A stretch of 64,000 nucleotides of DNA from Thermoanaerobaculia bacterium (GCA_017883205.1 JADGNZ010000033.1:3595-67594); one strand, 5' to 3'; positions 16,702 to 30,738 are shown, counted from the stretch's first letter. Notes: generated by a model from the sequence alone, not told the origin. Numbers and translations are program-made.

Positions 16702-17715
16702 ATGGTCATTGTGATGGAAAAACACGCGTCGGACACCGACATCGAGCACGTCGTTGCAGTGCTCAGCGAGCGCGGCTTCGACGTACATCGCTCCACCGGT
16801 GCGGACCAGACCGTCCTGGGCGTCGTCGGCGATGTTGCCAGCGTCGACCCGCGCGAGTTCGGGGTGCTGCACGGCGTTCAGGAAGCGGTCCGCGTCAGCG
16901 AGCCGTACAAGCTCTCCAGCCGCTCGTTCCGGCGCGAGAAAACGATCGTCAAGGCGCGCGGCGTCTCCATCGGCGGCAGCGACGTTGTGGTCATGGCTGG
17001 CCCATGTACGATCGAGAACGAACGGCAAATGTTCGAGACGGCGCGCCGCGTGGCCCGCGCCGGAGCGCGCGTACTGCGCGGCGGTGCGTACAAGCCGCGC
17101 ACTTCGCCGTACGCGTTTCAGGGAATGGGCATCGAAGGACTGAAACTTCTGCGCGCTGCCGGCGACGAGAACAACATGGCCACGATCTCCGAGGTCATGG
17201 AGATCAGCCAGATCGAAGCGATGCTCGATTATGTGGACATCCTGCAGGTCGGCGCGCGCAACATGCAGAACTACAACCTGTTGTCGGCCCTTGGCCAGAT
17301 CCGCAAGCCGGTGCTCCTCAAGCGCGGCATGTCCGCCACGATTCAGGAATGGCTGCTGGCGTCGGAGTACATCCTCTCCGGCGGCAACTACGACGTCATC
17401 CTCTGCGAGCGCGGCATCCGCACCTTCGAGACCTACACGCGCAACACCCTCGACATCTCAGCCATCCCGGTCATCAACAAACTCTCGCACCTGCCGATCA
17501 TCGCCGACCCCTCGCACGCCGTCGGCCGCCGCGACAAAGTGATGCCCCTGGCCCGCGCCATCGTCGCCGCCGGTGCGGACGGCGTCCTGATCGAGGTCCA
17601 TCACGAGCCAGAAAAAGCCGTCTGCGACGGCCCCCAATCGCTCTACCCCGACCAGTTCGCAAGACTGATGGACGAACTGCGGATCATCGTCCCGGCAGTG
17701 GGGCGGACATTGTGA
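16702..17715 (+). CDS. aroF: DAHP synthase (class I-beta, N-terminal regulatory domain)
   Basis: MAGPCTIE, LRGGAYKPRTSPYAFQG, QVGARNMQN, LLKRG, LCERGIRTFE, DPSHA, IEVH. Confidence 0.95.
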   Translation: MVIVMEKHASDTDIEHVVAVLSERGFDVHRSTGADQTVLGVVGDVASVDPREFGVLHGVQEAVRVSEPYKLSSRSFRREKTIVKARGVSIGGSDVVVMAGPCTIENERQMFETARRVARAGARVLRGGAYKPRTSPYAFQGMGIEGLKLLRAAGDENNMATISEVMEISQIEAMLDYVDILQVGARNMQNYNLLSALGQIRKPVLLKRGMSATIQEWLLASEYILSGGNYDVILCERGIRTFETYTRNTLDISAIPVINKLSHLPIIADPSHAVGRRDKVMPLARAIVAAGADGVLIEVHHEPEKAVCDGPQSLYPDQFARLMDELRIIVPAVGRTL

Positions 17716-17848
17716 TGGGGGAGTCAGCGTAGCGCGAGCGAACGTAGCGCCGGCGGCTCGCCGGCTGGTCCGCCGCCGGCCCGGCGGCATTGCCATTCAG
17801 CGGAGGTCGAAGGATCACAGCGCCGGCTGCGCCCGCAACCCAAAATGA

Positions 17849-17876
17849 CCCGGGCGCGCCTGCGAGCGCGCCCGGG
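17849..17876 (-). terminator. GC-rich hairpin downstream of cassette A gene
   Basis: 11-bp stem cccgggcgcgc/gcgcgcccggg, followed on - by tcatttt; stem nearly identical to 29089-29118. Confidence 0.65.
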
Positions 17877-17893
17877 CCACAGACTCCTCTACT

Positions 17894-18433
17894 CTACGCT
17901 TTCGGTGCCGTGGACGTGTCGTGGGTTGGTGGCGGCGTCGCTGGAGGGGCCTGCGTCGTCTTCTTGCGGCGCGCGGCGCCTTTCAGCCGTTTGACCTCCT
18001 CGACGTGCGGCACGAGCACCGCCCTTGCCGGGTCCTTGGCGAGCTGCGACCCGATCGTGTACGCCTGCATGGCGATGAGCCCGAGCCGTTGACGGCGAAT
18101 GAGGTTTGCGCCCTCGAGGCCATTCAGGAACGCGCGCGCCTCATCGACCGCGGCGTCCCAGCGGAGCGAGTCGTCCTGCAACTGACGGACTTCGTCGAGC
18201 GGCTGCCCGATCGCCTCCGATACGTTGTCGAGCACGCCGATGACGTTGATCGATGCCTCGACGATGGTCTTCGGCTGTCTCCGGAGACGCTTTTTGAGCA
18301 GCTTGCGCTGCTCCTTCGACAACGGCGCGAGGTCGTCGATCTGCGACCCGATGGCGCGCAACTGCGCGATGACCGCTTCGGGGGCCATCCTGGCCGGATC
18401 AGGGTTTGATGGAACAGGGGTGGTATTACTCAT
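17894..18433 (-). CDS. Hypothetical alpha-helical protein, cassette A (paralog of 28533-29057)
   Basis: RBS agggag upstream; shares PEA-x4-LRA-x3-QI, IN-x-IG, RW, ANL-x-RR-x-RLG, AY and L-x-PH with the paralog; basic then Pro-rich tail. Confidence 0.8.
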   Translation of the reverse strand: MSNTTPVPSNPDPARMAPEAVIAQLRAIGSQIDDLAPLSKEQRKLLKKRLRRQPKTIVEASINVIGVLDNVSEAIGQPLDEVRQLQDDSLRWDAAVDEARAFLNGLEGANLIRRQRLGLIAMQAYTIGSQLAKDPARAVLVPHVEEVKRLKGAARRKKTTQAPPATPPPTHDTSTAPKA

Positions 18434-18695
18434 GACGTAGTCTCCCTATGCGAGCTAGGCCGGAGGTGACGTCACGACTCGTCGACAAGTGCGAGCGGCC
18501 ACCGGCTGGAAATCCCGGCCACGCGCCGATTCTTCCGGTTGATGTTTGCCCGAGGCGTGTACACACCTCGGGTGCCCGCGGCAGGAGGAGATCAACTCAA
18601 CTCCCGCGCCGGTACAGGTCTGATGTGCTTATCCAGCACGCCCGTACCGCCGACAGCCGCCAAAGCCGGAGGTCTTACGATCTTCGACTTTGTAG
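18434..18695 (-). ncRNA. Putative structured 5' leader / ncRNA of cassette A
   Basis: About 260 nt between promoter and ATG with several hairpins (ggtac..gtacc, gtgct..agcac, cccgaggtgt..acgcctcggg) and motif blocks shared with 28190-28532. Confidence 0.5.
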
Positions 18696-18700
18696 CAAAA

Positions 18701-18729
18701 GATATAAGCCGGTTGAGACGTGATGTCAA
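18701..18729 (-). promoter_or_regulatory. sigma70-type promoter of cassette A
   Basis: On - strand: TTGACA, 17 nt, TATATC, followed by ttttgctacaaa. Confidence 0.65.
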
Positions 18730-18774
18730 GGGCACTGTGGAGACAAGTGCGGGTTGTAACGCTGCCGCAGTTTG

Positions 18775-19330
18775 TGCGCGCACCTGCGCACCGAGGTGAC
18801 CGCGTTGCTGTCCTTCATGGCCACATGTGCGGCGCAAGGTGACCGCATTGCGGCCCTTCATGTCCGCACGTACGGCGCAAGGTGACCGCATTGCGGCCCT
18901 TCATGGCCGCACGTGCGGCGCAAGATGACCGCATTGCGGCCCTTCATGTCCGCACGTGAGGCGCGAGTTGACCGCATTGCGGCCCTTCGTGTCCGCACGT
19001 GCGGCGCAAGTTGACCGCATTGCTGCCCTTCATGACCGCATTGCTGCTCTTCATGTCCGCACGTGCGGCGCAAGATGACCGCATTGCGGCTCTTCATGTC
19101 CGCATGTGAGGCGCGAGTTGACCGCATTGCTCCACGCCGTGTCCGCACTGCGGCCCGAGGTGACAGCGTTGCCGTACGCCGTATCCGCACTGCGGCCCGA
19201 TGGCGCAACGCTACGCGCGCCGTTTCCGAACGTGTGCACCGGAGGCGCAACGTTGCTGCGCGCCGGGTTCCACACGTGCGCGCCGAGGGTGTAGCGCTGG
19301 CGACACTGGAATGCACAGACGTGTGTTGCC
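18775..19330. repeat. Tandem array of 43-bp units (21+22-bp palindromic half-units)
   Basis: gaccgc(a/g)ttgc recurs at 18798, 18841, 18884, 18927, 18970, 19013, 19034 (half unit), 19077, 19120; degenerates beyond about 19160. Half-units carry ccgcattgcgg and ccgcacgtgcgg dyads. Confidence 0.92.
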
Positions 19331-19414
19331 ACGTCTCGGGGTCGACGGTCTCGACGCCGTCGCCACGATGAAGTCGTGATCATGGTTCATGGATGGGATG
19401 GAGTAGGAAATCCG

Positions 19415-19894
19415 CTAGCGTCTTGTCGCCACGAGTGAAACCGTGTCGATCCCCGACCCGCAACATGGGCCGGAAGTTGGACCGGTTAGCGTTGCCCTGA
19501 TCACACCGTTCGATACGCTGCCCGTGCCGTCGAGGGTGTACATACATGCGGTGAAGCCATTCCTCAGCGAAAGGTCGATCGCCGATCCCTTCACAGTCCC
19601 TCGCACAGTCGGGAGGTCAGGATTGATATTCGCAGAGAACGCGCACCCGTTCTGCCGAAGCTCCCAGCTCGCCAGGTAAACGCCGGTGGGACAATGCCCC
19701 TCGTACACCACATCGTAGATGCCCGAAACATCGGCACAGCCGGCAGGCGGGACTACTGCACGACCCCGTCCCACGCGAGTCGCCTCGGTGGTTACCGGGT
19801 GTGCGCTTTGCGCCGATTGCATCGGAGAGGTCGGCAACTCCTGTGAGCAGCCGGCAAAGAGCAGAGCCACGACGACAACCGCGAGCGCTTTCAT
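19415..19894 (-). CDS. Hypothetical Cys-containing lipoprotein
   Basis: Lipobox LFAGC after a hydrophobic signal; beta-strand-rich mature region with 6 further Cys. Confidence 0.7.
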   Translation of the reverse strand: MKALAVVVVALLFAGCSQELPTSPMQSAQSAHPVTTEATRVGRGRAVVPPAGCADVSGIYDVVYEGHCPTGVYLASWELRQNGCAFSANINPDLPTVRGTVKGSAIDLSLRNGFTACMYTLDGTGSVSNGVIRATLTGPTSGPCCGSGIDTVSLVATRR

Positions 19895-19921
19895 ATCGAA
19901 GAGAATGATACTCGTCGTAAT

Positions 19922-20024
19922 CCGAGAGGGGTCAGGTCGAAACCGAAACTGACGACAGCTTGCATCGAGCGGAATGGTCGTAGCGAAGTGTCGTCAGTTT
20001 CGGTTTCGACCTGACCCCTCTCGG
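19922..20024. repeat. Perfect 36-bp inverted repeat with 31-nt loop
   Basis: ccgagaggggtcaggtcgaaaccgaaactgacgaca (19922-19957) / tgtcgtcagtttcggtttcgacctgacccctctcgg (19989-20024). Confidence 0.9.
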
Positions 20025-20059
20025 TTCGTGCCAATCACGCGACGTTGGGGAGGTCTTTG

Positions 20060-20992
20060 ATGCCGGATCCGCGGCTCACCGTCATGGGGAGTTTCGTTGC
20101 CGATCTCGCGTTCCGAGCGCCGCGTCTGCCCGCCTGGGGTGAGACGGTCATGGGTTCCCAGTTCCGCCTCGGACCCGGCGGGAAGGGATCGAATCAGGCC
20201 GTTGCGGCCGCGCGCCTCGGCGGAACAGTCACCTTCATCAGCAAGCTCGGGCGCGATCCGTTCGGCGAACTGGCGCGCCGTACGTACAAGGAAGAGCGCA
20301 TCGACACTCGCTTCGTTTTCGAAACGCTCGATCATCCGACAGGCGGTGCAGCCGTCATCGTCGATGATGCAACGGGGGAGAACGCGATCGTCGTCGTGCC
20401 CGGCGCCGGTTTTCACGTGACCTCCGGCGACATCGATCAGGCCCGTGACGCCATCGTCCGGTCCGCCGTCTTCATGACGCAGCTCGAGCTCTCGCTCGAC
20501 GCCGTCGAGTACGGACTGCAGGTGGCGAAGTCTCTGGGCGTTCCGACGATCCTGAATCCTGCGCCCGCGTTGTCGCTTCCCGATCGCATCTATCCGTTTT
20601 GCGACTACATCACGCCGAACGAAACGGAAGCGGCGATCCTCGCGCAACAGCCGGTGACGGATCGACGAAGCGCGGAGCGCGTGGCGGAGATTCTGCTGTC
20701 GCGCGGCGCCGGCAACGTCGTGGTCACGCTCGGCGCGCAGGGTGCTCTCGTCAAGACGGCGAAGGTGACGCAGCATGTGCCAGCCATCGATGCCGGCCCG
20801 GTCGTCGAGACCACGGGCGCAGGCGACGCCTTCAACGGCGGTTTCGCTGTCGCTCTGGCGGAAGGTCTCGACATCGTCGCTGCGACACGCTTCGGTTGTG
20901 CCGTGGCCGGAATCTCGGTCACGAGGCACGGCACGGCTACCTCGATGCCGAAGCGCTCGGAAGTCGACGCGCTGTTGAAGAGCCTCTCGTGA
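20060..20992 (+). CDS. rbsK: Ribokinase (PfkB family)
   Basis: VMGSFVADL, GPGGKGSNQAVAAARLG, LNPAPA, ITPNETEA, VVTLGAQG, ETTGAGDAFNG. Confidence 0.88.
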   Translation: MPDPRLTVMGSFVADLAFRAPRLPAWGETVMGSQFRLGPGGKGSNQAVAAARLGGTVTFISKLGRDPFGELARRTYKEERIDTRFVFETLDHPTGGAAVIVDDATGENAIVVVPGAGFHVTSGDIDQARDAIVRSAVFMTQLELSLDAVEYGLQVAKSLGVPTILNPAPALSLPDRIYPFCDYITPNETEAAILAQQPVTDRRSAERVAEILLSRGAGNVVVTLGAQGALVKTAKVTQHVPAIDAGPVVETTGAGDAFNGGFAVALAEGLDIVAATRFGCAVAGISVTRHGTATSMPKRSEVDALLKSLS

Positions 20993-21179
20993 TGCGATAT
21001 TGCTGGCCGCAACGAAGGGCGATTCCAGTCACTATGCTGGCTGGTCATTACGAGGTGGAGACGCCGAAACCGGCTGAGACGGGTCATGCCGAAAGCGAAA
21101 GTGACGGCGCCTCGCGAACCGTTTCGCTGCTCGACCTTGCACATCAATCGCGCCGTTGACCTTGGCTTTCTGTCCCAAG

Positions 21180-21605
21180 TCAGTCGCTGACAACCTCAAC
21201 GCCGAGTGCACGTGCGGTGCGCAGTGCGCATCCAATGGGGTCCTTATTCACTTCGTGTTCCCAAAAACGGATCACTGTCCACCCATCCGCCTCGAGCCTG
21301 CGGTTGTTCCGGATATCGCGCTCGTGGTTCGTTCGTCGCTTCTCGGACCAGTACTCCAAGTTGGACTTGGGTGCGCGACCGTCAGGGCAGTCTGGACATG
21401 AATGCCAGAAACACCCATCCACGAACACCGCGACTCGCTTTTTCCCGAATGTGATGTCTGGCCTGCCAGGTATCTTCGAATGGAGACGGTAACCACGCAA
21501 GCCGCTCAGCCAGAGGAGCTTCCGAAGGATGATTTCAGGCTTTGTGTTCGTCGCCCGAATCCTTGACATGTTGAACGATCGGGTAGCTCTGTCGTGGACG
21601 TCCAT
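21180..21605 (-). CDS. vsr: Very short patch repair endonuclease
   Basis: MDVHDRATRSFNMSRIRATNTKPE, PGRPDI, VFVDGCFWH, GWTVIRFWEHE. Confidence 0.93.
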   Translation of the reverse strand: MDVHDRATRSFNMSRIRATNTKPEIILRKLLWLSGLRGYRLHSKIPGRPDITFGKKRVAVFVDGCFWHSCPDCPDGRAPKSNLEYWSEKRRTNHERDIRNNRRLEADGWTVIRFWEHEVNKDPIGCALRTARALGVEVVSD

Positions 21606-21670
21606 CGGCGTGTTTTCTACGAGAAGTAGAAGGTCTTGCGCTCACGAAAGCTTCCGGTACACTGAGCTTG

Positions 21671-22675
21671 ATGCCGACGGTATTCGAAATTTGCGCGGGA
21701 GCAGGCGGACAGGCCATTGGGCTTGAAGCCGCAGGTTTCGACTGCGTCGCGGCCGTCGAGCTTGACCATCACGCTTGCGAGACGCTCCGCCTCAATAGGC
21801 CGGAGTGGAACGTGGTCGAGGAAGATGTTCGTAAGGTTGATGGCACCCGGTATCGGGGTCAGGTCGACCTGCTGGCCGGCGGCGTACCTTGTCCCCCGTT
21901 TTCTATCGCCGGGAAGCAGCTCGGCAGCGATGACGAGCGCGATCTCTTCCCCGAAGCCCTCCGGCTTGCCGCTGAGATGCAACCGCGTGCGATCATGCTC
22001 GAGAATGTTCCCGGGTTTGCGTCAGAGAAGTTCCGCGAGTATCGCCGCGGCCTCTTTGCCCGGCTCAAGCGACTTGGTTACATCGCTGACTTTAGGATTC
22101 TCAACGCATCGAGCTTCGGTGTTCCCCAACTTCGACCACGCTGCGTCGTGGTTGCGCTGAAAGCCGACGACCTCGACTACTTCCGATGGCCGGAAGCGAA
22201 TGGGCTCGTCGCTTCAAGCGTCGGCGAGGTTCTCTCTGACCTGATCGCGGCCGGCGGCTGGCGCGGCGTCACCAAGTGGATGCGCCGTGCGAATGGAATT
22301 GCTCCGACGGTCGTCGGCGGGTCGAAGAAGCACGGTGGACCCGATCTTGGGCCGACGCGAGCCCGGGCTCAGTGGGCGCAGTTAGGCGTCGACGGCCTCG
22401 GAATCTCGGACGCGGCGCCAGATCGGGATTTCCCCGTCGATGCGATGCCGAAACTCACCGTTCGCATGGTTGCGAGGATTCAGGGTTTCCCCGACTCCTG
22501 GCAGATCGCCGGTCGGAAGACGGCCGCATACCGGCAAGTGGGAAACGCCTTTCCGCCGCCGGTCGCAGAGAAGGTTGCCGAGGCGATCCGTCGCGCTTTC
22601 GAGCGCGTGTATGAAGTCCCACTCGACGGAGAGCAGATTCGTATCTTCGGTCGCAAGCGGGCAGCCACCTCCTGA
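21671..22675 (+). CDS. DNA (cytosine-5) methyltransferase, M.NaeI/M.NgoMIV-like
   Basis: ICAGAGG, GGVPCPPFS, ENVPG, PQLRPR, QVGNAFPP; TRD APTVVGGSKKHGGPDLGPTRA resembles GCCGGC-specific enzymes. Confidence 0.9.
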   Translation: MPTVFEICAGAGGQAIGLEAAGFDCVAAVELDHHACETLRLNRPEWNVVEEDVRKVDGTRYRGQVDLLAGGVPCPPFSIAGKQLGSDDERDLFPEALRLAAEMQPRAIMLENVPGFASEKFREYRRGLFARLKRLGYIADFRILNASSFGVPQLRPRCVVVALKADDLDYFRWPEANGLVASSVGEVLSDLIAAGGWRGVTKWMRRANGIAPTVVGGSKKHGGPDLGPTRARAQWAQLGVDGLGISDAAPDRDFPVDAMPKLTVRMVARIQGFPDSWQIAGRKTAAYRQVGNAFPPPVAEKVAEAIRRAFERVYEVPLDGEQIRIFGRKRAATS

Positions 22676-22776
22676 GCGCGTGGAATCTGTCCTACAAGTT
22701 CTACAGATCGTAGAGTAGGCTTCCTCAGCGATCGATGACGCCGGTTCAGTAAGCTTGGTGTCGTCGCGCGCCGGAC

Positions 22777-23637
22777 ATGCCCGGACAACACCAGAACGAC
22801 GAGATACTTCTCCTGATCTCCAACGCGCTCCTGAAGTCCGCGGGCGGGTTAACAAAACTCTCTCTGGAGGTGGGGGAGCTTCTCCGTGAATGCTTCGACG
22901 GGGTCATCAAGACTCCGAAGACGGGGCGGCGACTCTACGAGGAGCTTGAGAAGACAGAGAAGACGCACATCGGCACCTGCGTCGAGATCGAGCTCCGTCA
23001 CCGCCTGAAGCTCGCACGCGGCAAAATGCTGGACTGCGAGATCGCCGGACTTGAAGTAGACATCAAGTTCAGCGTTGGTACGTCTTGGATGATCCCTCCA
23101 GAAGCGTTTGCCAGACCATGCATCATCATCTCTGCCGACGAGAAGAATGCGCGCTGCTGCTTCGGCTTCTTCATCGCGCAGGGTGAATACCTGAGTGCGG
23201 GCAACCGCGATAAGAAGTGCAGCATCAACAAATTGGGGCGAGAGAGCATACGGTGGCTCCTGAAAGACGAACCGTACCCACCGAACTTTTGGCAGTCGGT
23301 ACCCCGAGACGTCGCAGACCAGATCGCATCCGGCCGGAGTGGGAACGATCGGATGATCACGCTCTTTCGCGAGGTAATGGACCAGCCGATCAGCCGTAAG
23401 GTGATTGAGGATGTCGCAGCGCAAAAAGATCCCACAAGGCGCGTCCGGGGCGACAAGACACGCGGAACGCGGAACCGCCTCGCGAAAGACTCGATCATTC
23501 TGCTGTGTGGCGATTGGTCCGAAGCCCAGGAGTTCATCAGCAGCGCCGGCCTGCCATCGCTAGGCAAGAGTGAGTTCATGTCCCACCGCGTGGTTGGAGA
23601 TGAAGTCGCGCTCGCCAAGAAACTCGGTTTGCTATAG
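22777..23637 (+). CDS. NaeI-family type II restriction endonuclease
   Basis: TGRRLYEELEKTEKTHIGTCVEI, VDIKFS, WMIPPEA, GNRDKK, QKDPTRRVR pattern; adjacent to C5 methylase and vsr. Confidence 0.82.
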   Translation: MPGQHQNDEILLLISNALLKSAGGLTKLSLEVGELLRECFDGVIKTPKTGRRLYEELEKTEKTHIGTCVEIELRHRLKLARGKMLDCEIAGLEVDIKFSVGTSWMIPPEAFARPCIIISADEKNARCCFGFFIAQGEYLSAGNRDKKCSINKLGRESIRWLLKDEPYPPNFWQSVPRDVADQIASGRSGNDRMITLFREVMDQPISRKVIEDVAAQKDPTRRVRGDKTRGTRNRLAKDSIILLCGDWSEAQEFISSAGLPSLGKSEFMSHRVVGDEVALAKKLGLL

Positions 23638-23824
23638 CCGCCTGGGATTGAGTTGGTGTCCTATCTGGAACCCCAACTAACGGGCGCGCGCGAGAGAGTT
23701 TTCGGTAAGTTGGTTTCCCCGATGCGACCGCAACCTTAACGTCTCGATTGGCGTCGTTCCCATCGCCAATTTCGTGACCCAGCGCACGTCCGCCCATCCT
23801 TCGCCCGCGCAGAATGAAATCCGC

Positions 23825-25969
23825 ATGAAAGCCCTCCTCCTCGCCGTCACGCTTGCCAATCCCATTCTCTTCGTGACGCAGGTGCCGGTTCCTGGCGACT
23901 TCACCACCGTTGCGTCGACGTTTGGCAACCATCTGGCCGCGGTGGCGGAGGCGCCGCGTGGGGGGGATCTTTGGATCCGGTATCCCGATGGGACGACGAA
24001 GAACCTCACGCGGGCGGCGGGGTTCGGGAACGGCGGGATGCAGTCCGCGGCGTCGATCGCCGTGCGCGAGCCGTCGGTGCACTGGAGCGGGACGAAGGCT
24101 CTCTTCAGCATGGTCATCGGGGCGCCTTCGCAGCAGTATGTCTGGGAGACCTACTACTGGCAGATTTACGAGATCACAGGACTCGGCGAGAACGAGACGC
24201 CGGTCATCCGCAAGATCCCCAATCAGCCGGCGAGCTACAACAACGTCAGTCCGTTCTATGGCACCGACGACCGCATCCTCTTTACGTCCGACCGCCCCCG
24301 CAGCGGCGAACGGCATCTCTACCCGCAGCTCGATGAGTACGAAGAGGCGCCGACCGTCACCGGACTCTGGAGCCTCGATCCCGTGGCCGGCGATCTGCGG
24401 ATGCTCGACCACACGCCGTCGGGGCTCTTCACTCCGTCGATCGACAGCTTCGGCCGTGTGATCTTCACGCGATGGGATCACCTGCAGCGCGACCAGCAGG
24501 CCGACACCGATGCGACGGAAGGTGGCTCGTATGGGACGTTCGACTACGCGGACGAATCAGCGAGCGCGGCGCGTCTCGATCAGCGCGTGGAGATCTTTCC
24601 CGAGCCGCGCAGCAGCCGGACCGATCTTCTCGCCGGCACCAACCTCGAGGGGAACAGCATCAACCACTTCTTTCCGTGGGAGATCAATGAGGATGGGACA
24701 TCCGAGGAGACGGTGAACCATGTGGGGCGCCACGAGCTCTTCGGGTACTTCAACCGGAGCATGAACGACAGCGGGCTTTCGGAGTTCAATGGCGACGTTA
24801 ATCGGGCAAACCAGAACATCGTCGACAGCCTTTTCCAGTTGCACGAGGATCCGACTCGGCCGGGCGTCTACTATGGCGTCGATGCGCCTGAGTTCCAGAC
24901 CCACGCCTCGGGACAGATCGTCCGCTTCGCCGCGGAGCCGTCGCGAACGGCGGACAACATCGCCATCACGTACATCACCCCTCGCTCGACGCGCGACGTC
25001 GCGCAGGGCACGCCGGCGGCCGACGCGTCGGGGCACTATCGCGATCCGCTGCCTCTCGCGGACGGGACGTTCCTCGCGGTGCATACGAGCGAGTTGCGCG
25101 GGGACAACAACGACGGCTCGCGCGCGGCGCCGACGTCGCGATACGCATTCCGCATCCGGACGATGACGCCTCAGGGCGGCGTCTACGTGCCCGGACAGGC
25201 TCTGACTCAGGGCATCCAGGGAAGCGTGTCGTACTTCGATCCCGACGTATTAGTGACTTGGTCGGGCGAGATGTGGGAGCTGAGTCCGGTGGAGGTGCGG
25301 GCGAGGCAGCGGCCGGCTCGGCGGACGACGCTGATCGAGGAGCCGGAAGCGAAGATCTTCCGCGAGGAGAACGTCGACCTCGCCGCGTTTCGCGCGAACC
25401 TGCAGGCGCGCAATCTCGCGCTGATCGTCAGCCGCAACGTGACCGCGCGCGATGGGGCGGACAAACAGCAACCCTACAACCTTCACGTCACCGGCAGCTC
25501 GACGCAGAAGGTGGAGGGGAGCAGCAAGCTATTCGACATCGCTCACCTCCAACTCTTCCAGGCCGACCAGCTCCGCGGCCTCGGCGGCACCGCATCGCCG
25601 CGCGACGGGCGCCGCGTACTCGCGCGCGTGATGCACGACCCCGCAGTGAAGAACGCGCCGACCTCGGGCCCGGCTGGCAGCGTGCAGATCGCCGCCGACG
25701 GATCGATCGCCGCGTTCGTCCCCGCGCATCGCGCCATGAGCTGGCAACTGACGGACGCCGCGGGAACGCCGGTCGTGCGCGAGCGCTACTGGCTGACGTT
25801 CCAGCCCGGCGAGGTCCGCGTCTGCAGCGCCTGCCACGCTGTCAACTCCCACGATCAGCTCGGCGCCTCCGCCCCGACGAATTCCCCCGAGGCGCTGCGA
25901 ACGCTGCTGCGAACGTGGAAGGCATCGCAGACGACAACGCCATCACGACGCCGATCGGCAGGGAAGTGA
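23825..25969 (+). CDS. Secreted HzsA-related beta-propeller protein with C-terminal CxxCH
   Basis: Short signal peptide; VREPSVHWSGTKALFSM, YNNVSPFY, ILFTSDRP, GRVIFTRWD; DGSIAAFVPA...WLTFQPGEVRVCSACH; tail SRRRSAGK. Confidence 0.7.
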   Translation: MKALLLAVTLANPILFVTQVPVPGDFTTVASTFGNHLAAVAEAPRGGDLWIRYPDGTTKNLTRAAGFGNGGMQSAASIAVREPSVHWSGTKALFSMVIGAPSQQYVWETYYWQIYEITGLGENETPVIRKIPNQPASYNNVSPFYGTDDRILFTSDRPRSGERHLYPQLDEYEEAPTVTGLWSLDPVAGDLRMLDHTPSGLFTPSIDSFGRVIFTRWDHLQRDQQADTDATEGGSYGTFDYADESASAARLDQRVEIFPEPRSSRTDLLAGTNLEGNSINHFFPWEINEDGTSEETVNHVGRHELFGYFNRSMNDSGLSEFNGDVNRANQNIVDSLFQLHEDPTRPGVYYGVDAPEFQTHASGQIVRFAAEPSRTADNIAITYITPRSTRDVAQGTPAADASGHYRDPLPLADGTFLAVHTSELRGDNNDGSRAAPTSRYAFRIRTMTPQGGVYVPGQALTQGIQGSVSYFDPDVLVTWSGEMWELSPVEVRARQRPARRTTLIEEPEAKIFREENVDLAAFRANLQARNLALIVSRNVTARDGADKQQPYNLHVTGSSTQKVEGSSKLFDIAHLQLFQADQLRGLGGTASPRDGRRVLARVMHDPAVKNAPTSGPAGSVQIAADGSIAAFVPAHRAMSWQLTDAAGTPVVRERYWLTFQPGEVRVCSACHAVNSHDQLGASAPTNSPEALRTLLRTWKASQTTTPSRRRSAGK

Positions 25970-26183
25970 TGTTGGGGAACTGATCGGGATCGAACCGATT
26001 ACGCTCTGAGCGCGATCTGCGCGGCTGTGGGTCAATTTGGAAAACCGATCACCACAGAGGCACAAAGGTCACAGAGACACCTCCGCGTTCTCTGCGTCTC
26101 TGTGGTTGTCCTTGCTTTGGCGACACGATTAAGCCGTTACGTATTTCGTGCCCTCGGCAGATTACAATCGGCCAGGAGCACCG

Positions 26184-27800
26184 ATGATCTCGCTCACGCG
26201 CGCAACCTTCCCCGCGATCCTGCTGTTGGTACTCGTGACCTCACCGCTCACGGCGGCGACGCGCACCTGGAGTGGCGCCGTGAGCGACCGTTGGAGCGAC
26301 CTTCAGAATTGGGATGGGAGCGGGCCCCTTGCCGGCGACGATCTGGTCTTTCCCCATCTGAGCGGGGGTGGGGGGGGCACTACGAACGACCTCCCTCCCG
26401 GAACGATGTTCCATTCGATCACGCTCAATGGCTTCGGCTACCGGTTCGGCGGAAACGGAATCGTCCTCGGCGCAGGTGGACTCATCCTCCACAACCCTTT
26501 CCTCGCCTCGCTGATCCACACCGATTTGAAGTTCGCCAGCATTACGCTCGGGGAGTCGCAGACCTGGAGCGGGCCTGCCGGTGAATACACCCACCTCGGA
26601 CCGCTGAACCTCAACGGCAAGACATTGACGATCACGAATTTCGTCCGCCCGGAATTCGACTCGATCAGCGGGACGGGCGCCATCATCGAGAATAATCCGA
26701 ATGGTCTCGTGAGCAGCGCCAGCTCGACCTATCTCGGCACGGTAACGGTCGATTCCGGCTTGTTCCAGATCAGTGGGACGGCAGGCGACGTCCAGGTCAC
26801 CGGTCACGGTTTCGGCGGCGACGACCAGGCGAATCAGGCGAACGCGACGCTCGGACTGGCCGGTGCCAACGTCGCCAATGTGACGGTGAACGGCAGCGGC
26901 GCGCTCACTCTTGATTCCTATCCGGGAACATCGTATGCCGGCAGTCTTGTCTTCGCGCCCGCGGCCGGAGATCCCGCGTGGTTCGTCCTCGCGGACGGTC
27001 CGCTTCCGGTAGCCTGCAACGTCGCCGGCAACGTGGCACTCGGCAACGCGCTGCTCGTTGTCGGTCCCCACTCCGCGTTCACGCTCATCCACAGTCAGGG
27101 TGCCGGTCCGGTCGGCGGTACGTTTCTTGGTTTGCCGGAGGGAGCGATTTTCGGTAACGGGATGTGGGCTCGCATCTCCTATACCGGTGGTGCCGGGAAT
27201 GACGTGACTCTCACGCCGGTGAGCACGGCCGTCACCGGCACCACGACGACGATTACGTCATCCGCAAATCCATCTGCGCCAGGACAGGTCGTCACGTTCA
27301 CGGCAGCCGTGACTTCGGCCTCGGGCACGCCGGCGGGCGAGGTTCGCTTCTACGACGGAGGCCTCCTTCTCGGCACGTCCGTGCTGAGCGCATCGGGTCG
27401 TGCCGCCTTGGCCACGTCGTTCGCGGCAGGATCGCACCTCGTCACGGCGGCATATCTCGGCGCGGACACCGTGGCAACCAGTCAGGCAGGCGTCCGGCAG
27501 GCCGCCTGCGACCCGCCGATCCTGACCCAACAGCCGGCATCGCAGACGATCGCTTCAGGGCAGCGGATGACGCTCATGGTTCAAACGAGCGCCACGCCAC
27601 CGTTCTCGCTCCAGTGGTACCAGGGATTGTCGGGCGACACGTCGACGCCAATCTTCGGCGCGATCTCGCAGACGTTCACGCCGCCTGCGCTGACGCGGAG
27701 CACGTCGTTCTGGGTGCAGCTCACCAGTGTCTGCGGCAACGTGCAAAGCGCCACAGCGACGATCACCGTCCAGTCGAGGCGGCGAACCGCCGGCCACTGA
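26184..27800 (+). CDS. Secreted protein: autotransporter-passenger-like repeats plus Ig-like domains
   Basis: Signal peptide, TRTWSG...WSDLQNW, ISYTGGAGNDVTL, Big_3-like (SSANPSAPGQVVTFTA), Ig (QQPASQTI...QWYQG); tail SRRRTAGH; RBS aggag. Confidence 0.75.
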   Translation: MISLTRATFPAILLLVLVTSPLTAATRTWSGAVSDRWSDLQNWDGSGPLAGDDLVFPHLSGGGGGTTNDLPPGTMFHSITLNGFGYRFGGNGIVLGAGGLILHNPFLASLIHTDLKFASITLGESQTWSGPAGEYTHLGPLNLNGKTLTITNFVRPEFDSISGTGAIIENNPNGLVSSASSTYLGTVTVDSGLFQISGTAGDVQVTGHGFGGDDQANQANATLGLAGANVANVTVNGSGALTLDSYPGTSYAGSLVFAPAAGDPAWFVLADGPLPVACNVAGNVALGNALLVVGPHSAFTLIHSQGAGPVGGTFLGLPEGAIFGNGMWARISYTGGAGNDVTLTPVSTAVTGTTTTITSSANPSAPGQVVTFTAAVTSASGTPAGEVRFYDGGLLLGTSVLSASGRAALATSFAAGSHLVTAAYLGADTVATSQAGVRQAACDPPILTQQPASQTIASGQRMTLMVQTSATPPFSLQWYQGLSGDTSTPIFGAISQTFTPPALTRSTSFWVQLTSVCGNVQSATATITVQSRRRTAGH

Positions 27801-27813
27801 TCTGCAAAGGCTT

Positions 27814-27875
27814 ATCCGCAGATTACGCAGATGAGACGCAGATAAAGAACTCTTCGATCTGCGTCATCTGCGGAT
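27814..27875. repeat. ATCCGCAGAT-type inverted repeat, copy 2
   Basis: atccgcagattacgcagat ... atctgcgtcatctgcggat. Confidence 0.75.
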
Positions 27876-27914
27876 CATGAACCTTCCTCTCGATATTCGA
27901 GTCTTCAGTCTCGA

Positions 27915-28150
27915 TATCGACAGGGCATCGTGATCGAAGGGAGCGCCTTCGATGCCAAACGGTGCGTCGCCGTTTCCAAACGGTGCGTCGCCCTTTTCAA
28001 ACGGTGTGCCGCCGTTTCCAAACGGTGCGTCGCCCTTTTCAAACGGTGCGCTGCCCTTTTCAAACGGTGCGCCGCCGTTTCCAAACGGAGTATCTCTGTT
28101 TCCAAAAAGGAGTGTCTCCAATTCGAAACGAGCGTCTCCAATATCGAAGG
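27915..28150. repeat. Tandem array of 21-bp palindromic units
   Basis: aaacgg at 27957, 27978, 27999, 28020, 28041, 28062, 28083 (exact 21-bp period) with degenerate flanking units; unit aaacggtgcgtcgcc(gtttcc|cttttc). Confidence 0.92.
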
Positions 28151-28155
28151 ACATT

Positions 28156-28185
28156 TTTACAGAAGATGATTGCTGTATCTATCTT
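28156..28185 (+). promoter_or_regulatory. Putative sigma70-type promoter of cassette B
   Basis: TTTACA, 18 nt, TATCTT, followed by gttacaaa (compare tatcttttgctacaaa in cassette A); locally AT-rich. Confidence 0.5.
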
Positions 28186-28189
28186 GTTA

Positions 28190-28532
28190 CAAATTGACCG
28201 CCTTTTTAGCCGGGGGTGCTTCGTCTAAGTATGTCGAGGACGGCAAGGTCACCCGCAAAGAGCGGATGCCCGTTGCCCTACTCGAACGAGGTACTGAGCC
28301 CGTCAAGCTTGAGCCATGGCGCGACGGACCCGGCTGCAAAGTGGGGTTGAGCGGTAGCTCCTCCAGCCTCGGAAGTATCCCCCGCAGCCGCGGACTGTGG
28401 GGGCAGGCGAGCGAACGGATTGCGACGTTTCGCTCATGACGTTCCAACCCGGGACTACGTCCGAGCTGCGCACTCAGTCCGAATGACGTCCCATAACCAA
28501 GTTGCCCTTCGGGGCAGGAAAGGAGTTTCACC
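28190..28532 (+). ncRNA. Putative structured 5' leader / ncRNA of cassette B
   Basis: About 340 nt with hairpins (cccccgcag..ctgtggggg, gagcgaac..gtttcgctc, tgcccttcggggca) and motif blocks shared with the cassette A leader. Confidence 0.5.
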
Positions 28533-29057
28533 ATGTCGAATGAGAATGCAGTCAGTCAAACAAACGCCGCTGCGGCGGCAGACGGTCAGTCCGCCACGCC
28601 GGAAGCGATCGTGGAGACGCTTCGCGCACTGCGCGAGCAGATCCCCGAGTACGTGCAGTTGGCGCCCGCGGACGCGAGGTCGAGTCAGCCTATCGCCAAT
28701 CTCCATCCGGATTTTGCCCAGGCGGCCATCAACGCCATCGGCGCATCGCCGTTGGTCCAGGCCGTCGTCGGCCAAACGCCGGAGGCATTGCAGCAGGAAG
28801 CTGAGTCGGCCGCGCGCTGGTCGAAAGTGGAGGACGAGCTGTTGGCGATGCTGAAAGGCGTCTCCTACGCGAACCTGATGCGGCGTAACCGCCTCGGCGA
28901 AGCAGCCCTGACGGCCTACGCGGTCAGCAAGAAGCTGGTGCGCTCACCGGCGCATGCTGCCCTTCTGCCGCACCTCGCGCTGATGCGGAAGGCCAATCGT
29001 CTCGGACGCAAGTCCCAGCCGACGCCCCCGGCACCGGTTTCAGCGCCCGGTGTCTGA
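28533..29057 (+). CDS. Hypothetical alpha-helical protein, cassette B (paralog of 17894-18433)
   Basis: Strong RBS aaggag; motif-level similarity to the cassette A protein along the full length. Confidence 0.82.
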   Translation: MSNENAVSQTNAAAAADGQSATPEAIVETLRALREQIPEYVQLAPADARSSQPIANLHPDFAQAAINAIGASPLVQAVVGQTPEALQQEAESAARWSKVEDELLAMLKGVSYANLMRRNRLGEAALTAYAVSKKLVRSPAHAALLPHLALMRKANRLGRKSQPTPPAPVSAPGV

Positions 29058-29088
29058 TGCAGTCATGTAGTTGCGCAGTCATGTAGCA

Positions 29089-29118
29089 GCCGGGCGCGCC
29101 GATCGCGGCGCGCCCGGC
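29089..29118 (+). terminator. GC-rich hairpin downstream of cassette B gene
   Basis: 13-bp stem gccgggcgcgccg/cggcgcgcccggc. Confidence 0.65.
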
Positions 29119-29242: not shown

Positions 29243-29339
29243 GCACAGACAAGAGTGTCTGTGCCACACCAGCACCCGCACGAACAAGAGTGTCTGTGGC
29301 ACATCAGCACCCGCGCAGACGAGAGTGTCTTTGCCACAT
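29243..29339. repeat. Three tandem REP-like palindromes (35-bp period)
   Basis: gcacagacaagagtgtctgtgc consensus; gagtgtct at 29253, 29288, 29323. Confidence 0.8.
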
Positions 29340-29358
29340 TGCCCTACAATCCGCGCGC

Positions 29359-30738
29359 ATGAAACGGCTTGTGGTCGTATTTCTGCTCGTGGCGGCATCG
29401 TCCGTCGCTGCACCGCCGCCTCTTGACGCGAAGACGAAGCAACTCGTCTTCGACATCTACAAAGAGCTGATCGAGATCAATACCACCGACTCGGCCGGGA
29501 ACAACACGACCGCGGCAAACGCGATGGCCGCTCGGTTGAGAGCGGCGGGGTTTTCCGCGGGCGATGTGCAGGTGCTGGGGCCGGATCCACGCAAAGGCAA
29601 TCTTGTGGCCCGGCTGCATGGGCGCGGAACGGAGAAGCCGTTGCTGCTGCTCGCGCACCTCGACGTCGTCGAAGCGAAGGCCGAGGATTGGTCGATGAAT
29701 CCGTTCGTGCTCACGGAGAAGGACGGCTACTACTACGGCCGCGGGACGAGCGACGACAAGGCCATGGCGGCGATCTGGATCGCCACGCTCATCCGCTTCA
29801 AACAGGAAGGATGGGTGCCCGACCGCGATGTGATCGTGGCGCTTACGTCCGACGAGGAGACCGGCGGCGCGAACAACGGCGTGGCCTGGCTGCTTGCGAA
29901 TCACCGCGATCTGATCGATGCCTCGTTCGCGCTCAACGAAGGGGGCTCCGGGCGGCTGGAGAACGGCCGCAGGCTTTACAACGGCGTCGGCGCCAGCGAG
30001 AAGGTCTACGTCTCGTTTCGTCTGGAGACGCACAACAAAGGTGGACACAGCTCCGCGCCGCGCAAGGACAACGCCATCTATCAACTGGCGAATGGCCTGG
30101 TGCGGCTGGAGAACTACGAGTTTCCCGTCGCCTTGAACGAGGTGACCCGCGCGTACTTCGAACGGATGTCGTCGATCGAAGAGGGGCCGACGGCGGCGGA
30201 CATGAAGGCCGTCACCGCCGGCGACGCCGCCGCGGCGAAGCGCCTCTCCGCAACGCCGGCCTACAACGCGCAGATGCGCACGACGTGCGTTGCCACGCGC
30301 CTCGAGGGGGGGCACGCGGACAACGCGCTGCCGCAGATGGCACGCGCCACCGTGAACTGCCGGATCCTGCCCGGCGAATCGGCCGATGCCGTTCGCGACA
30401 CGATCGTCAGAGTCCTCGATGATCCGGGAATCGAGATCACCTGGATCGACAAGCCGAAACCAAGCCCGCCGTCGCCGCTCACGCCGGCTGTGATGAAACC
30501 GATCGCCGACGTCACGAACGAGCTCTGGCCCGGCACGCCGGTGCTGCCGCTCATGTCCGCGGGCGCGAGCGATGGCCTCTACCTCCGCAACGCCGGCATC
30601 CCGACGTACGGCGTCTCCGGCCTTTTCGGCGAGCTGACGGACGCCCGGGCGCATGGCCGCGACGAACGGGTGCGCATCGATTCGTTCTATGACAGCGCGC
30701 AGTTCCTTTATGTGCTCGTGAGACGGCTGGCATCGTGA
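29359..30738 (+). CDS. M20/M25/M40 family metallo-hydrolase (secreted)
   Basis: LLLAHLDVV, YGRGTSDDK, TSDEE, LNEGG, GGHSS, GASDG, AHGRDER; signal peptide. Confidence 0.9.
   Translation: MKRLVVVFLLVAASSVAAPPPLDAKTKQLVFDIYKELIEINTTDSAGNNTTAANAMAARLRAAGFSAGDVQVLGPDPRKGNLVARLHGRGTEKPLLLLAHLDVVEAKAEDWSMNPFVLTEKDGYYYGRGTSDDKAMAAIWIATLIRFKQEGWVPDRDVIVALTSDEETGGANNGVAWLLANHRDLIDASFALNEGGSGRLENGRRLYNGVGASEKVYVSFRLETHNKGGHSSAPRKDNAIYQLANGLVRLENYEFPVALNEVTRAYFERMSSIEEGPTAADMKAVTAGDAAAAKRLSATPAYNAQMRTTCVATRLEGGHADNALPQMARATVNCRILPGESADAVRDTIVRVLDDPGIEITWIDKPKPSPPSPLTPAVMKPIADVTNELWPGTPVLPLMSAGASDGLYLRNAGIPTYGVSGLFGELTDARAHGRDERVRIDSFYDSAQFLYVLVRRLAS

Follow-up and report, generated by a model that had tools for sequence, protein, structure and literature searches.

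We analyzed a stretch of 64,000 nucleotides from a Thermoanaerobaculia bacterium (GCA_017883205.1, JADGNZ010000033.1:3595-67594), referred to here as the window, which carries two related gene cassettes, A on the minus strand and B on the plus strand. Both have their parts in identical order, namely tandem array, promoter, leader, open reading frame (ORF) and hairpin (Table 1). An earlier reading of the sequence alone (the sequence-only reading) had proposed these five parts, and all were found where it had put them or close by, the shared leader only partly. The cassettes are placed between chromosomal aro/trp genes and a peptidase gene, with A at the left edge of the locus, B at the right edge and both hairpins outward. 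The observation is confirmed and is larger than these two cassettes, and the interpretation that came with it is partly supported.

Table 1. Features of cassettes A and B and of the region between them, in window positions
Feature	Position	Strand	Evidence
Cassette A 3' hairpin, terminator-like	17845..17880	-	core stem-loop-stem 17850-17875; terminator scan
Cassette A gene, 179-amino-acid (aa) basic all-helical protein, uncharacterized family	17894..18433	-	ORF call, AlphaFold2 (AF2) model
Cassette A leader, predicted 5' untranslated region, ~270 nt	18434..18700	-	folding z = -3.10
Structured leader RNA core, cassette A (model R1)	18491..18662	-	cmsearch 168.6 bits
Cassette A promoter, predicted sigma-70-type, with motif	18689..18729	-	read by eye
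Array A, 43-bp unit of two dyad-symmetric subunits	18794..19288	.	Tandem Repeats Finder (TRF), self-BLAST
Island between cassettes, unrelated, outside the system	19400..27800	.	Pfam
Array B, 21-bp unit	27955..28148	.	TRF
Cassette B promoter, predicted, with motif	28156..28193	+	promoter scan
Cassette B leader, ~345 nt, RNA unlike leader A	28186..28532	+	folding z = -3.08
Cassette B gene, 174-aa paralog	28533..29057	+	BLASTP against A protein
Cassette B 3' hairpin, 10-bp stem identical to that of cassette A	29090..29117	+	stem match

Array A is well kept at 18794-19172, where TRF gives a period of 43 bp comprising dyad subunits of 21 and 22 bp (90% matches over 5.7 copies and 81% over the next 3.3); degenerate units, detected by self-BLAST of the cassette, reach ~19288. 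Array B has a period of 21 bp at 27955-28106 (7.2 copies, 83% matches), with decayed units to 28148. The arrays of non-coding appearance, ~21-bp periodicity and dyad symmetry that had been described upstream of both genes are therefore present, and a BLAST comparison found no sequence in common between them, as had been claimed. Arrays of the B type occur at four further genome sites, on contigs C1, C2, C62 and C69. The two proteins are paralogous, also as claimed (BLASTP, 32% identity over 151 aa, E = 3e-24).

The promoters of both cassettes, which are predictions only, are placed between array and leader. That of cassette A was read by eye and consists of TTGACA (18729-18724), a 17-nt spacer and TATATC (18706-18701). 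A final C in the second hexamer kept the promoter scanner from counting it; both hexamers are kept in paralogous copies. The predicted promoter of cassette B (28156-28185) has TTTACA, an 18-nt spacer and TATCTT, and scored 9/12 matches in the scan. The motif TATCTT(tt)GYTACAAA, noticed at both promoters in the sequence-only reading, is at 18704-18689 in cassette A and 28180-28193 in cassette B, and a search of both strands of the 6.37-Mb genome found exactly these two occurrences. The common 3' hairpin was likewise recovered, and its 10-bp stem has 11 genomic copies, 11/11 just 3' of genes of the family described below. The terminator scan flagged the hairpin of cassette A, with 16 pairs and a T-rich tail; that of cassette B, which has the identical stem and no T-run after it, was not flagged.

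The two genes belong to a large family. In the genome of the window (G000; 6.37 Mb, 105 contigs), a single-sequence search gave 37 family matches, and an iterated hidden Markov model (HMM) run over all ORFs of at least 60 aa gave 65 family ORFs, some of them fragments. In public data, 787 family proteins were found at E <= 0.001 among 1034 candidates, all unnamed or hypothetical and, where an organism is stated, always from a Thermoanaerobaculia metagenome-assembled genome; 398 clusters at 50% identity, among 1.84 billion representatives, belong to the family. The family profile matched 16/18 other genomes of the genus and 0/12 genomes outside the bacterial family from the same draw. In a wider draw it matched 32/72 genomes of the same bacterial family and 0/228 genomes from 20 other families of the class. 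Among the genomes searched, the system is confined to one family of Thermoanaerobaculia. Many family copies are close to a contig end (a few hundred bases at most), the contig breaking off upstream of the gene, and of the 210 contig ends of G000, 20 are near a family gene and 28 near an array. These repeats therefore break assembly, which is of practical concern for short-read assemblies of this soil lineage. Contigs from four read runs over the cassette are short and fragmented, and a few low-depth skips within the array (<95% likeness) are inseparable from paralogs.

Arrays lie next to family genes far more often than next to other genes, and on one side of them. Counting the family genes with at least 1 kb of upstream sequence (17 others are closer to a contig end), an array is present within 1 kb upstream in 38/48, compared to 221/4544 other genes (odds ratio 74, Fisher p ~1e-39). 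Downstream arrays were found at 0/59 family genes vs 267/4535 others. In many family members the gap between array and ORF is only 16-200 nt. The sequence-only reading had proposed that homologs be compared with other genes in this way, and the association holds beyond the genome: congeners have an upstream array at 17/24 best-hit loci with at least 1 kb upstream (23/32 if weak secondary hits are counted), and in three other genera an array of 21, 42 or 43 bp period is present 60-250 nt upstream of the leader RNA R1 in 16/25 loci.

The type of array tracks the adjacent protein. Among protein pairs at least 75% identical, 20/21 have a common array type, and median protein identity is 74% in pairs of one type as against 24% in pairs of differing types; below ~65% identity the arrays are usually unrelated. 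These results fit the part of the sequence-only reading that pairs each protein with its own array, which the protein may recognize.

Across genomes, array density also rises with the number of family copies. The count of arrays whose period is close to a multiple of 21 bp (~21n arrays) per 400 kb was 0 in G009 and G015, which have 0 family matches, 1 in the closed genome G003 (4 matches), 6 in G005 (31 matches), 16 in the closed genome G006 (42 matches) and 16 in G000 (55 matches; 256 arrays in 6.37 Mb), a strong trend and not a formal test, as the six genomes are kin and drafts lose arrays. It had been asked whether the arrays might be generic repeats, scattered irrespective of the genes. 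They are scattered, but within the sampled related genomes they are numerous only in those carrying the family.

A second array-linked gene family was not found: an array is faced by the 5' end of 120 non-family genes, but 101 of these are singletons and the largest cluster has 4 members. That cluster, the sole one above three, consists of four paralogous ORFs of 80-102 aa, each facing an orphan array (G000 C103:125039-125347, C31:133923-134165, C3:16303-16545 and C88:41715-42020). A single 43-bp array at G000 C100:100742-102647, with two motifs alternating in its unit, stands between two distinct family genes that point away from it; each of the two proteins could have its own motif.

TRF found 356 arrays of at least 100 bp in the whole genome, with periods of 21 (181 arrays), 22 (21), 20 (5), 41 (9), 42 (21) and 43 bp (13) prominent. 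Array length is 100-700 bp, with 5 to 26 head-to-tail units of strict 21-bp period, which abut without spacers, unlike clustered regularly interspaced short palindromic repeats (CRISPR); no Rfam CRISPR repeat was found at threshold in the window. According to crude gene calls (4717 genes, 82% coding), 215/256 ~21n arrays are intergenic. BLAST clustering separated ~62 unrelated unit types, of which 25 are singletons and the largest have 23, 23, 20 and 19 members, so one common factor cannot read all of them. Dyad arms of at least 5 bp are present in 97/221 units, compared to ~22/221 shuffled units. Arm positions are better kept between units than spacers in 27/32 arrays (p = 2e-5), with a slight bias to well-kept columns, as arms were located in the consensus. 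Coding arrays were considered and rejected, since periods of 20, 22, 41 and 43, none divisible by 3, are common. A period held strictly at two helical turns and often not a multiple of 3 points to a constraint on DNA, and a reason at the RNA level is not evident. A separate class of long tandem repeats, with periods of 147-441 that are mostly multiples of 3, is present at G000 C73:79036-82893 and 91674-94842, C18:12000-16666 and C86:26122-31547; these look as if they encode domain repeats in very large proteins and have no relation to the 21-bp arrays.

In the AF2 model, the cassette A protein has six helices and no strand (DSSP), with a predicted local distance difference test (pLDDT) score of 91.6 and a predicted TM-score (pTM) of 0.67. 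The helices are at 18-31, 40-51, 55-67, 69-75, 79-131 (53 residues) and 135-159, and the tails are proline-rich. The family is basic, with a median isoelectric point (pI) of 9.75 in 75 members (9.98 for protein A, 9.1 for protein B). Two copies were modelled as an intertwined antiparallel homodimer, with an interface score (ipSAE) of 0.79 vs 0.00 in the best of 3 controls, contact agreement between runs of at least 88% and partner pLDDT of at least 81; in a benchmark this mark was reached by 20/30 proteins solved as pairs and 1/23 solved as single chains. The modelling supports, and does not prove, a symmetric homodimer, which would fit dyad-symmetric sites. The most conserved columns, R26, G76, W92, E98, N110, R113 and L140, are in the modelled dimer interface or beside its residues. 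The ratio of non-synonymous to synonymous divergence (dN/dS) among A-type paralogs is 0.19-0.66, which indicates that the proteins are under purifying selection. There is a weak trend for N-terminal parts to be relatively more diverged where arrays differ.

The A and B proteins have no match in Pfam, NCBIfam, PHROGs or PADLOC. Among PDB sequences, the best E in a profile search was 0.42, and the ESM Atlas returned the family's own clusters alone, with a best TM-score of 0.40 to anything else. No homolog was found by tblastn in 72,556 plasmid records or in phage records. Structure prediction, proposed in the sequence-only reading, thus yielded a helical homodimer but no recognized DNA-binding fold. 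In some cassettes (G000 C81:49931-50983 and C72:92-1126; loci L023, L025, L026 and L028) a second, far more divergent family-like ORF (HMM score 39-51) is present directly after the first, apparently forming a two-gene unit.

Both leaders fold better than shuffled sequences (Table 1). The sequence-only reading had described them as sharing blocks. Both exist and are structured, but they are not homologous overall: the only local match of model R1 to leader B is one hairpin (28342-28365, 8.3 bits), and a pairwise alignment of the two leaders was uninformative. Leaders A and B are different RNAs, and relatives of leader B were found by nhmmer upstream of other family genes. A-type leaders are ~95% identical in six copies and two contig-end fragments; as the coding sequences of these copies have diverged at synonymous sites (dS 0.19-0.65), the leader is held by selection or gene conversion. 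The covariance model R1 was built from 22 leaders of several genomes and has 169 positions and 44 base pairs. It has 8 copies in G000, all just 5' of family genes, and copies in 16/81 genomes searched of the same bacterial family, with a maximum of 18 per genome. In three other genera, a family gene lies at most 400 nt downstream of 28/30 R1 hits. R1 leaders have a CCUCC stretch near the 3' end, which might occlude the ribosome-binding site. In 53 R1 copies from at least four genera, aligned by fitting to the model and so favouring structure, 96.4% of cells are paired vs 42-56% with slid partners, and compensatory change on both sides is seen in 22/44 pairs vs 4-7 with slid partners; the observed values were reached by 0/500 shuffles.

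The A-type leader is thus a conserved structured RNA with covariation, and leader B lies outside the covariance model that had been called for. Rfam gave 0 matches in the window at gathering thresholds, and in E-value mode over the leaders the best score was 17.6 bits against a threshold of 37, none reaching the gathering score. The A-type leader, found in up to 18 copies per genome, may be a new cis-regulatory RNA. As a common part of the module, however, a shared leader RNA has to be given up, since it fails between A and B and R1 precedes only 8 of the ~65 family copies of G000. Leaders vary by subfamily and arrays are usual, which makes the array the general partner of the gene and the leaders specific to subfamilies.

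Several known systems resemble parts of this one, and membership of Rep-iteron, ParR-parC, RAYT-REPIN or CRISPR systems fails on defining protein or repeat features. Iterons of theta-replicating plasmids (P1, F, R6K, RK2, pPS10) are direct repeats of ~17-22 bp, about two helical turns apart. They adjoin the gene of their own winged-helix Rep initiator, which is self-regulated, and repeat clusters without a gene titrate Rep or pair with it. Rep on iterons and ParR on parC load side by side on helically phased sites. Similarly, helically phased ~21-bp direct repeats adjoin the gene here (TRF periods 21 and 43; 38/48 genes), and the orphan arrays parallel the gene-less clusters. However, the family protein is all-helical and of ~180 aa, with no winged-helix Rep domain (Rep_3 or RepA type) and no Pfam hit, and the family is chromosomal, with ~65 genes and 256 arrays per genome and no plasmid hit.

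In partition systems, ParR-parC, ParG and omega, helically phased tandem repeats are found upstream of, and overlapping, the promoter of the binder's operon. The binders are small dimeric ribbon-helix-helix proteins that load cooperatively into one nucleoprotein structure. Phased tandem repeats upstream of the gene of a small, here modelled, dimer are a likeness; the differences are a model with helices only, dozens of specificities in one chromosome, and the absence of a ParA, ParM or TubZ NTPase gene beside the cassettes (Pfam, 19 neighbouring ORFs). REP and REPIN sequences are families of short palindromic units dispersed intergenically in all orientations, several of which coexist in one genome, each tied to a cognate RAYT gene flanked by its own repeats; RAYTs are HUH/Y1 enzymes. 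The arrays described here are also mostly intergenic by crude gene calls, in all orientations and of several types per genome, and those upstream of family genes may likewise be cognate to them. However, no HUH/Y1 domain was found in the family (Pfam), and the units form long tandem arrays of 5 to 26 copies, which are only upstream of the gene (38/48 vs 0/59 downstream). CRISPR differs in its unique spacers, as units here abut. The sequence-only reading recognized no named system, and our comparison agrees; a literature search, in which matches were judged by title and abstract, found no description of such arrays or of the protein family. These results point to an undescribed protein-DNA repeat system.

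Our best explanation, to which we give slightly less than even confidence, is that the cassettes are single units of a protein-DNA repeat system restricted to the lineage, in which protein dimers would bind their own arrays in an iteron-like or centromere-like manner. The analysis shows the local gene-array link, its co-variation across genomes, the phasing, the dyad enrichment, the modelled dimer and the leader covariation; DNA binding, autoregulation and any cellular role are inferred. The small, basic, all-helical protein would form an intertwined symmetric homodimer and bind the array units just upstream of its own promoter. Repeats of 21-22 bp (or 42-43 bp, with two subunits alternating) equal two turns of B-DNA and would put the sites on one face of the helix, so that many dimers could load side by side. 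Binding may feed back on the adjacent promoter, and one protein may also occupy orphan arrays of the same type elsewhere in the chromosome. In the subfamily that includes cassette A, the structured 5' leader RNA would add control after transcription starts, and the GC-rich hairpin would end the transcript. Gene and array would duplicate jointly, the array sequence then turning over fast, with units within an array kept alike; close paralogs would consequently share an array type and distant ones would not.

Several observations weigh against this explanation. An upstream array is missing in 10/48 family genes and in the members examined in the low-copy genomes G003 and G008. Most arrays (209/256) do not adjoin a family gene, 37/62 array types have no gene-linked member in this assembly, and one gene per array type was tried as a rule and is not supported, as gene-linked types number 25 vs 26.6 +/- 2.5 expected at random. 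The four orientations of the genes flanking the arrays are about equal (50/47/47/44), convergent pairs included, and dyad arms are of 4 bp or less in 124/221 units. One pair of proteins 85% identical has unrelated arrays, and joint duplication of gene and array alone would make array type track protein identity; the kinship of the genomes compared for density counts in the same direction. No DNA-binding fold or family was recognized in the protein: no Pfam family recurs in 75 aligned members, where matches are scattered noise with at most 3 members per family; Foldseek of the model against PDB gave nothing at E <= 0.001; and VIA-align against 48,161 chains matched just the long helix 76-136 (Z <= 6.5), the N-terminal part being barely tested. 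Finally, a comparison of same-type with different-type pairs gave no clear specificity segment.

Eukaryotic satellites, which combine fast turnover and homogeneity within arrays with a diversifying family of binding proteins, offer an analogy only: here too arrays turn over fast, units are alike within an array and the protein family diversifies, but the host is bacterial and arrays are of 100-700 bp. A bolder form of our explanation, which we consider doubtful, is that this is a bacterial counterpart of satellite DNA, with dozens of mutually specific dimer-array pairs in one Thermoanaerobaculia family, each dimer forming an extended nucleoprotein filament on its own array and on others of that type, and a new structured leader RNA tuning the level of each protein. 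The ~250 arrays might then be addressable sites, which would serve in pairing ('handcuffing'), local silencing or insulation, or chromosome organization, or they might reflect an arms race of selfish arrays with the proteins taming them. If the proteins bind the arrays, the family would be a large natural set of orthogonal pairs of small dimers and DNA sites, with ~60 specificities in a single genome, useful for studies on the diversification of DNA recognition and for building synthetic regulators. Bacterial chromosomes would also be shown to accommodate helically phased minisatellites by the hundred, linked to a single gene family.

The locus itself documents turnover. The DAHP (3-deoxy-D-arabino-heptulosonate 7-phosphate) synthase gene (window 16702-17715) and the M20 peptidase gene (from ~29359) are 26-30 nt apart in G009, G017 and G011; in G000 they are separated by 11.6 kb. 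The orthologous spot of G006 and G014 has one different cassette with its own 21-bp array. G018 has retained that array but lost the gene and leader except for a part that is inverted, and G012 has an orphan array only. Cassettes are therefore gained, replaced and decaying, and an orphan array can be what decay leaves behind. In G006, G014 and G018, units of the orthologous array differ by species and are alike within each array; this divergence between species with likeness within arrays is concerted evolution.

Such patchiness is also what a mobile or selfish cassette would produce, in which array, gene and hairpin move as a unit, or the protein spreads arrays in a RAYT-REPIN-like manner, so that orphan arrays are remnants and the protein acts in recombination or propagation and not in regulation. 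The extreme copy numbers within the genus (0 to 55 matches), the restriction of the family to 1 of 21 searched bacterial families of the class, the many copies at contig ends, the near-equal flanking orientations and the empty, differently occupied or rearranged DAHP/M20 spacers all agree with it. On the other hand, no transposase, integrase or HUH motif was found in or beside the cassettes, the plasmid and phage records searched hold no homolog, the junctions read have no target-site duplication or terminal repeat, and the proteins are under purifying selection. We regard mobility as unlikely to be the explanation and, as it is compatible with DNA binding, it would be no replacement for it.

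Alternatively, the arrays may be bound by another host factor or act via DNA curvature alone, the family genes being merely regulated by them and the protein working elsewhere, for example on its own leader RNA. The lack of a recognized DNA-binding fold and the distance of most arrays from family genes would suit this, and a conserved structured leader directly 5' of the gene, as found in one subfamily, recalls autoregulated RNA-binding proteins. To the eye, the spacers between dyads in the unit lists look A/T-rich, which could curve the DNA. However, many different factors would be required for ~62 unrelated unit types, the arrays face no second gene family, array type tracks the adjacent protein, and samples of congeners lacking the family contained no arrays. 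A protein acting on its leader is further at odds with the restriction of R1 to 8 of ~65 copies and with the different leader of cassette B. We therefore rate this alternative as improbable.

A module acting at the RNA level, in which arrays are transcribed into runs of small hairpins that the protein binds or processes, seems very improbable. It would make use of the many dyad-symmetric units, which would form hairpins, of the basic protein and of the structured leaders, but 21-22 nt corresponds to two B-DNA turns and has no evident meaning in RNA, the predicted promoters of A and B are downstream of the arrays, and more than half of the units have only the short arms noted above. Coincidence, with the arrays as generic genomic repeats whose nearness to two genes is meaningless, can appeal to the 209 arrays that are not gene-linked among 256 and is hardly credible in view of the upstream odds ratio of 74 with 0/59 downstream, the co-variation of array density with family copy number and the same architecture in four genera.

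The region between the cassettes contains genes for a PfkB kinase (20045-20992), Vsr (21180-21605, minus strand), a C5 DNA methylase (21668-22675) and a NaeI-type endonuclease (22777-23637), identified with Pfam, and for two further proteins, one of 731 aa that has an HZS-alpha domain and one of 550 aa that is Ig-like. This island is not at the orthologous site in G009, G017 and G011.

Other small repeats are found around the cassettes. A palindromic REP-like element is present just upstream of array B (27806-27877); it has dozens of genome copies over 60-70 nt at 80-86% identity, its 30-nt arm is found at >90% on many contigs, and in G017 and G011 the DAHP/M20 spacer is taken up by a short version of it. 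Another family of small dispersed repeats is represented just upstream of the M20 peptidase gene (29243-29339) by a 35-bp unit with an inverted repeat, in 2.8 tandem copies, whose ~32-nt core occurs at >90% identity at many loci in G006, G014, G018 and others. After the stop of the DAHP synthase gene there is a GC-rich repeat (17735-17800), also found in the orthologous spacer of G004; its summed contig depth peaks in run X1 at 390-708 vs 20-280 elsewhere, as expected of a high-copy element. Finally, at ~29340-29362 and at orthologous sites (loci L111-L120), CTACAATCC plus 6-7 bases stands, in every genome read, directly before the start codon (ATG) of the M20 peptidase gene, and with a TACAAT box so near to it the mRNA would have no leader or almost none.

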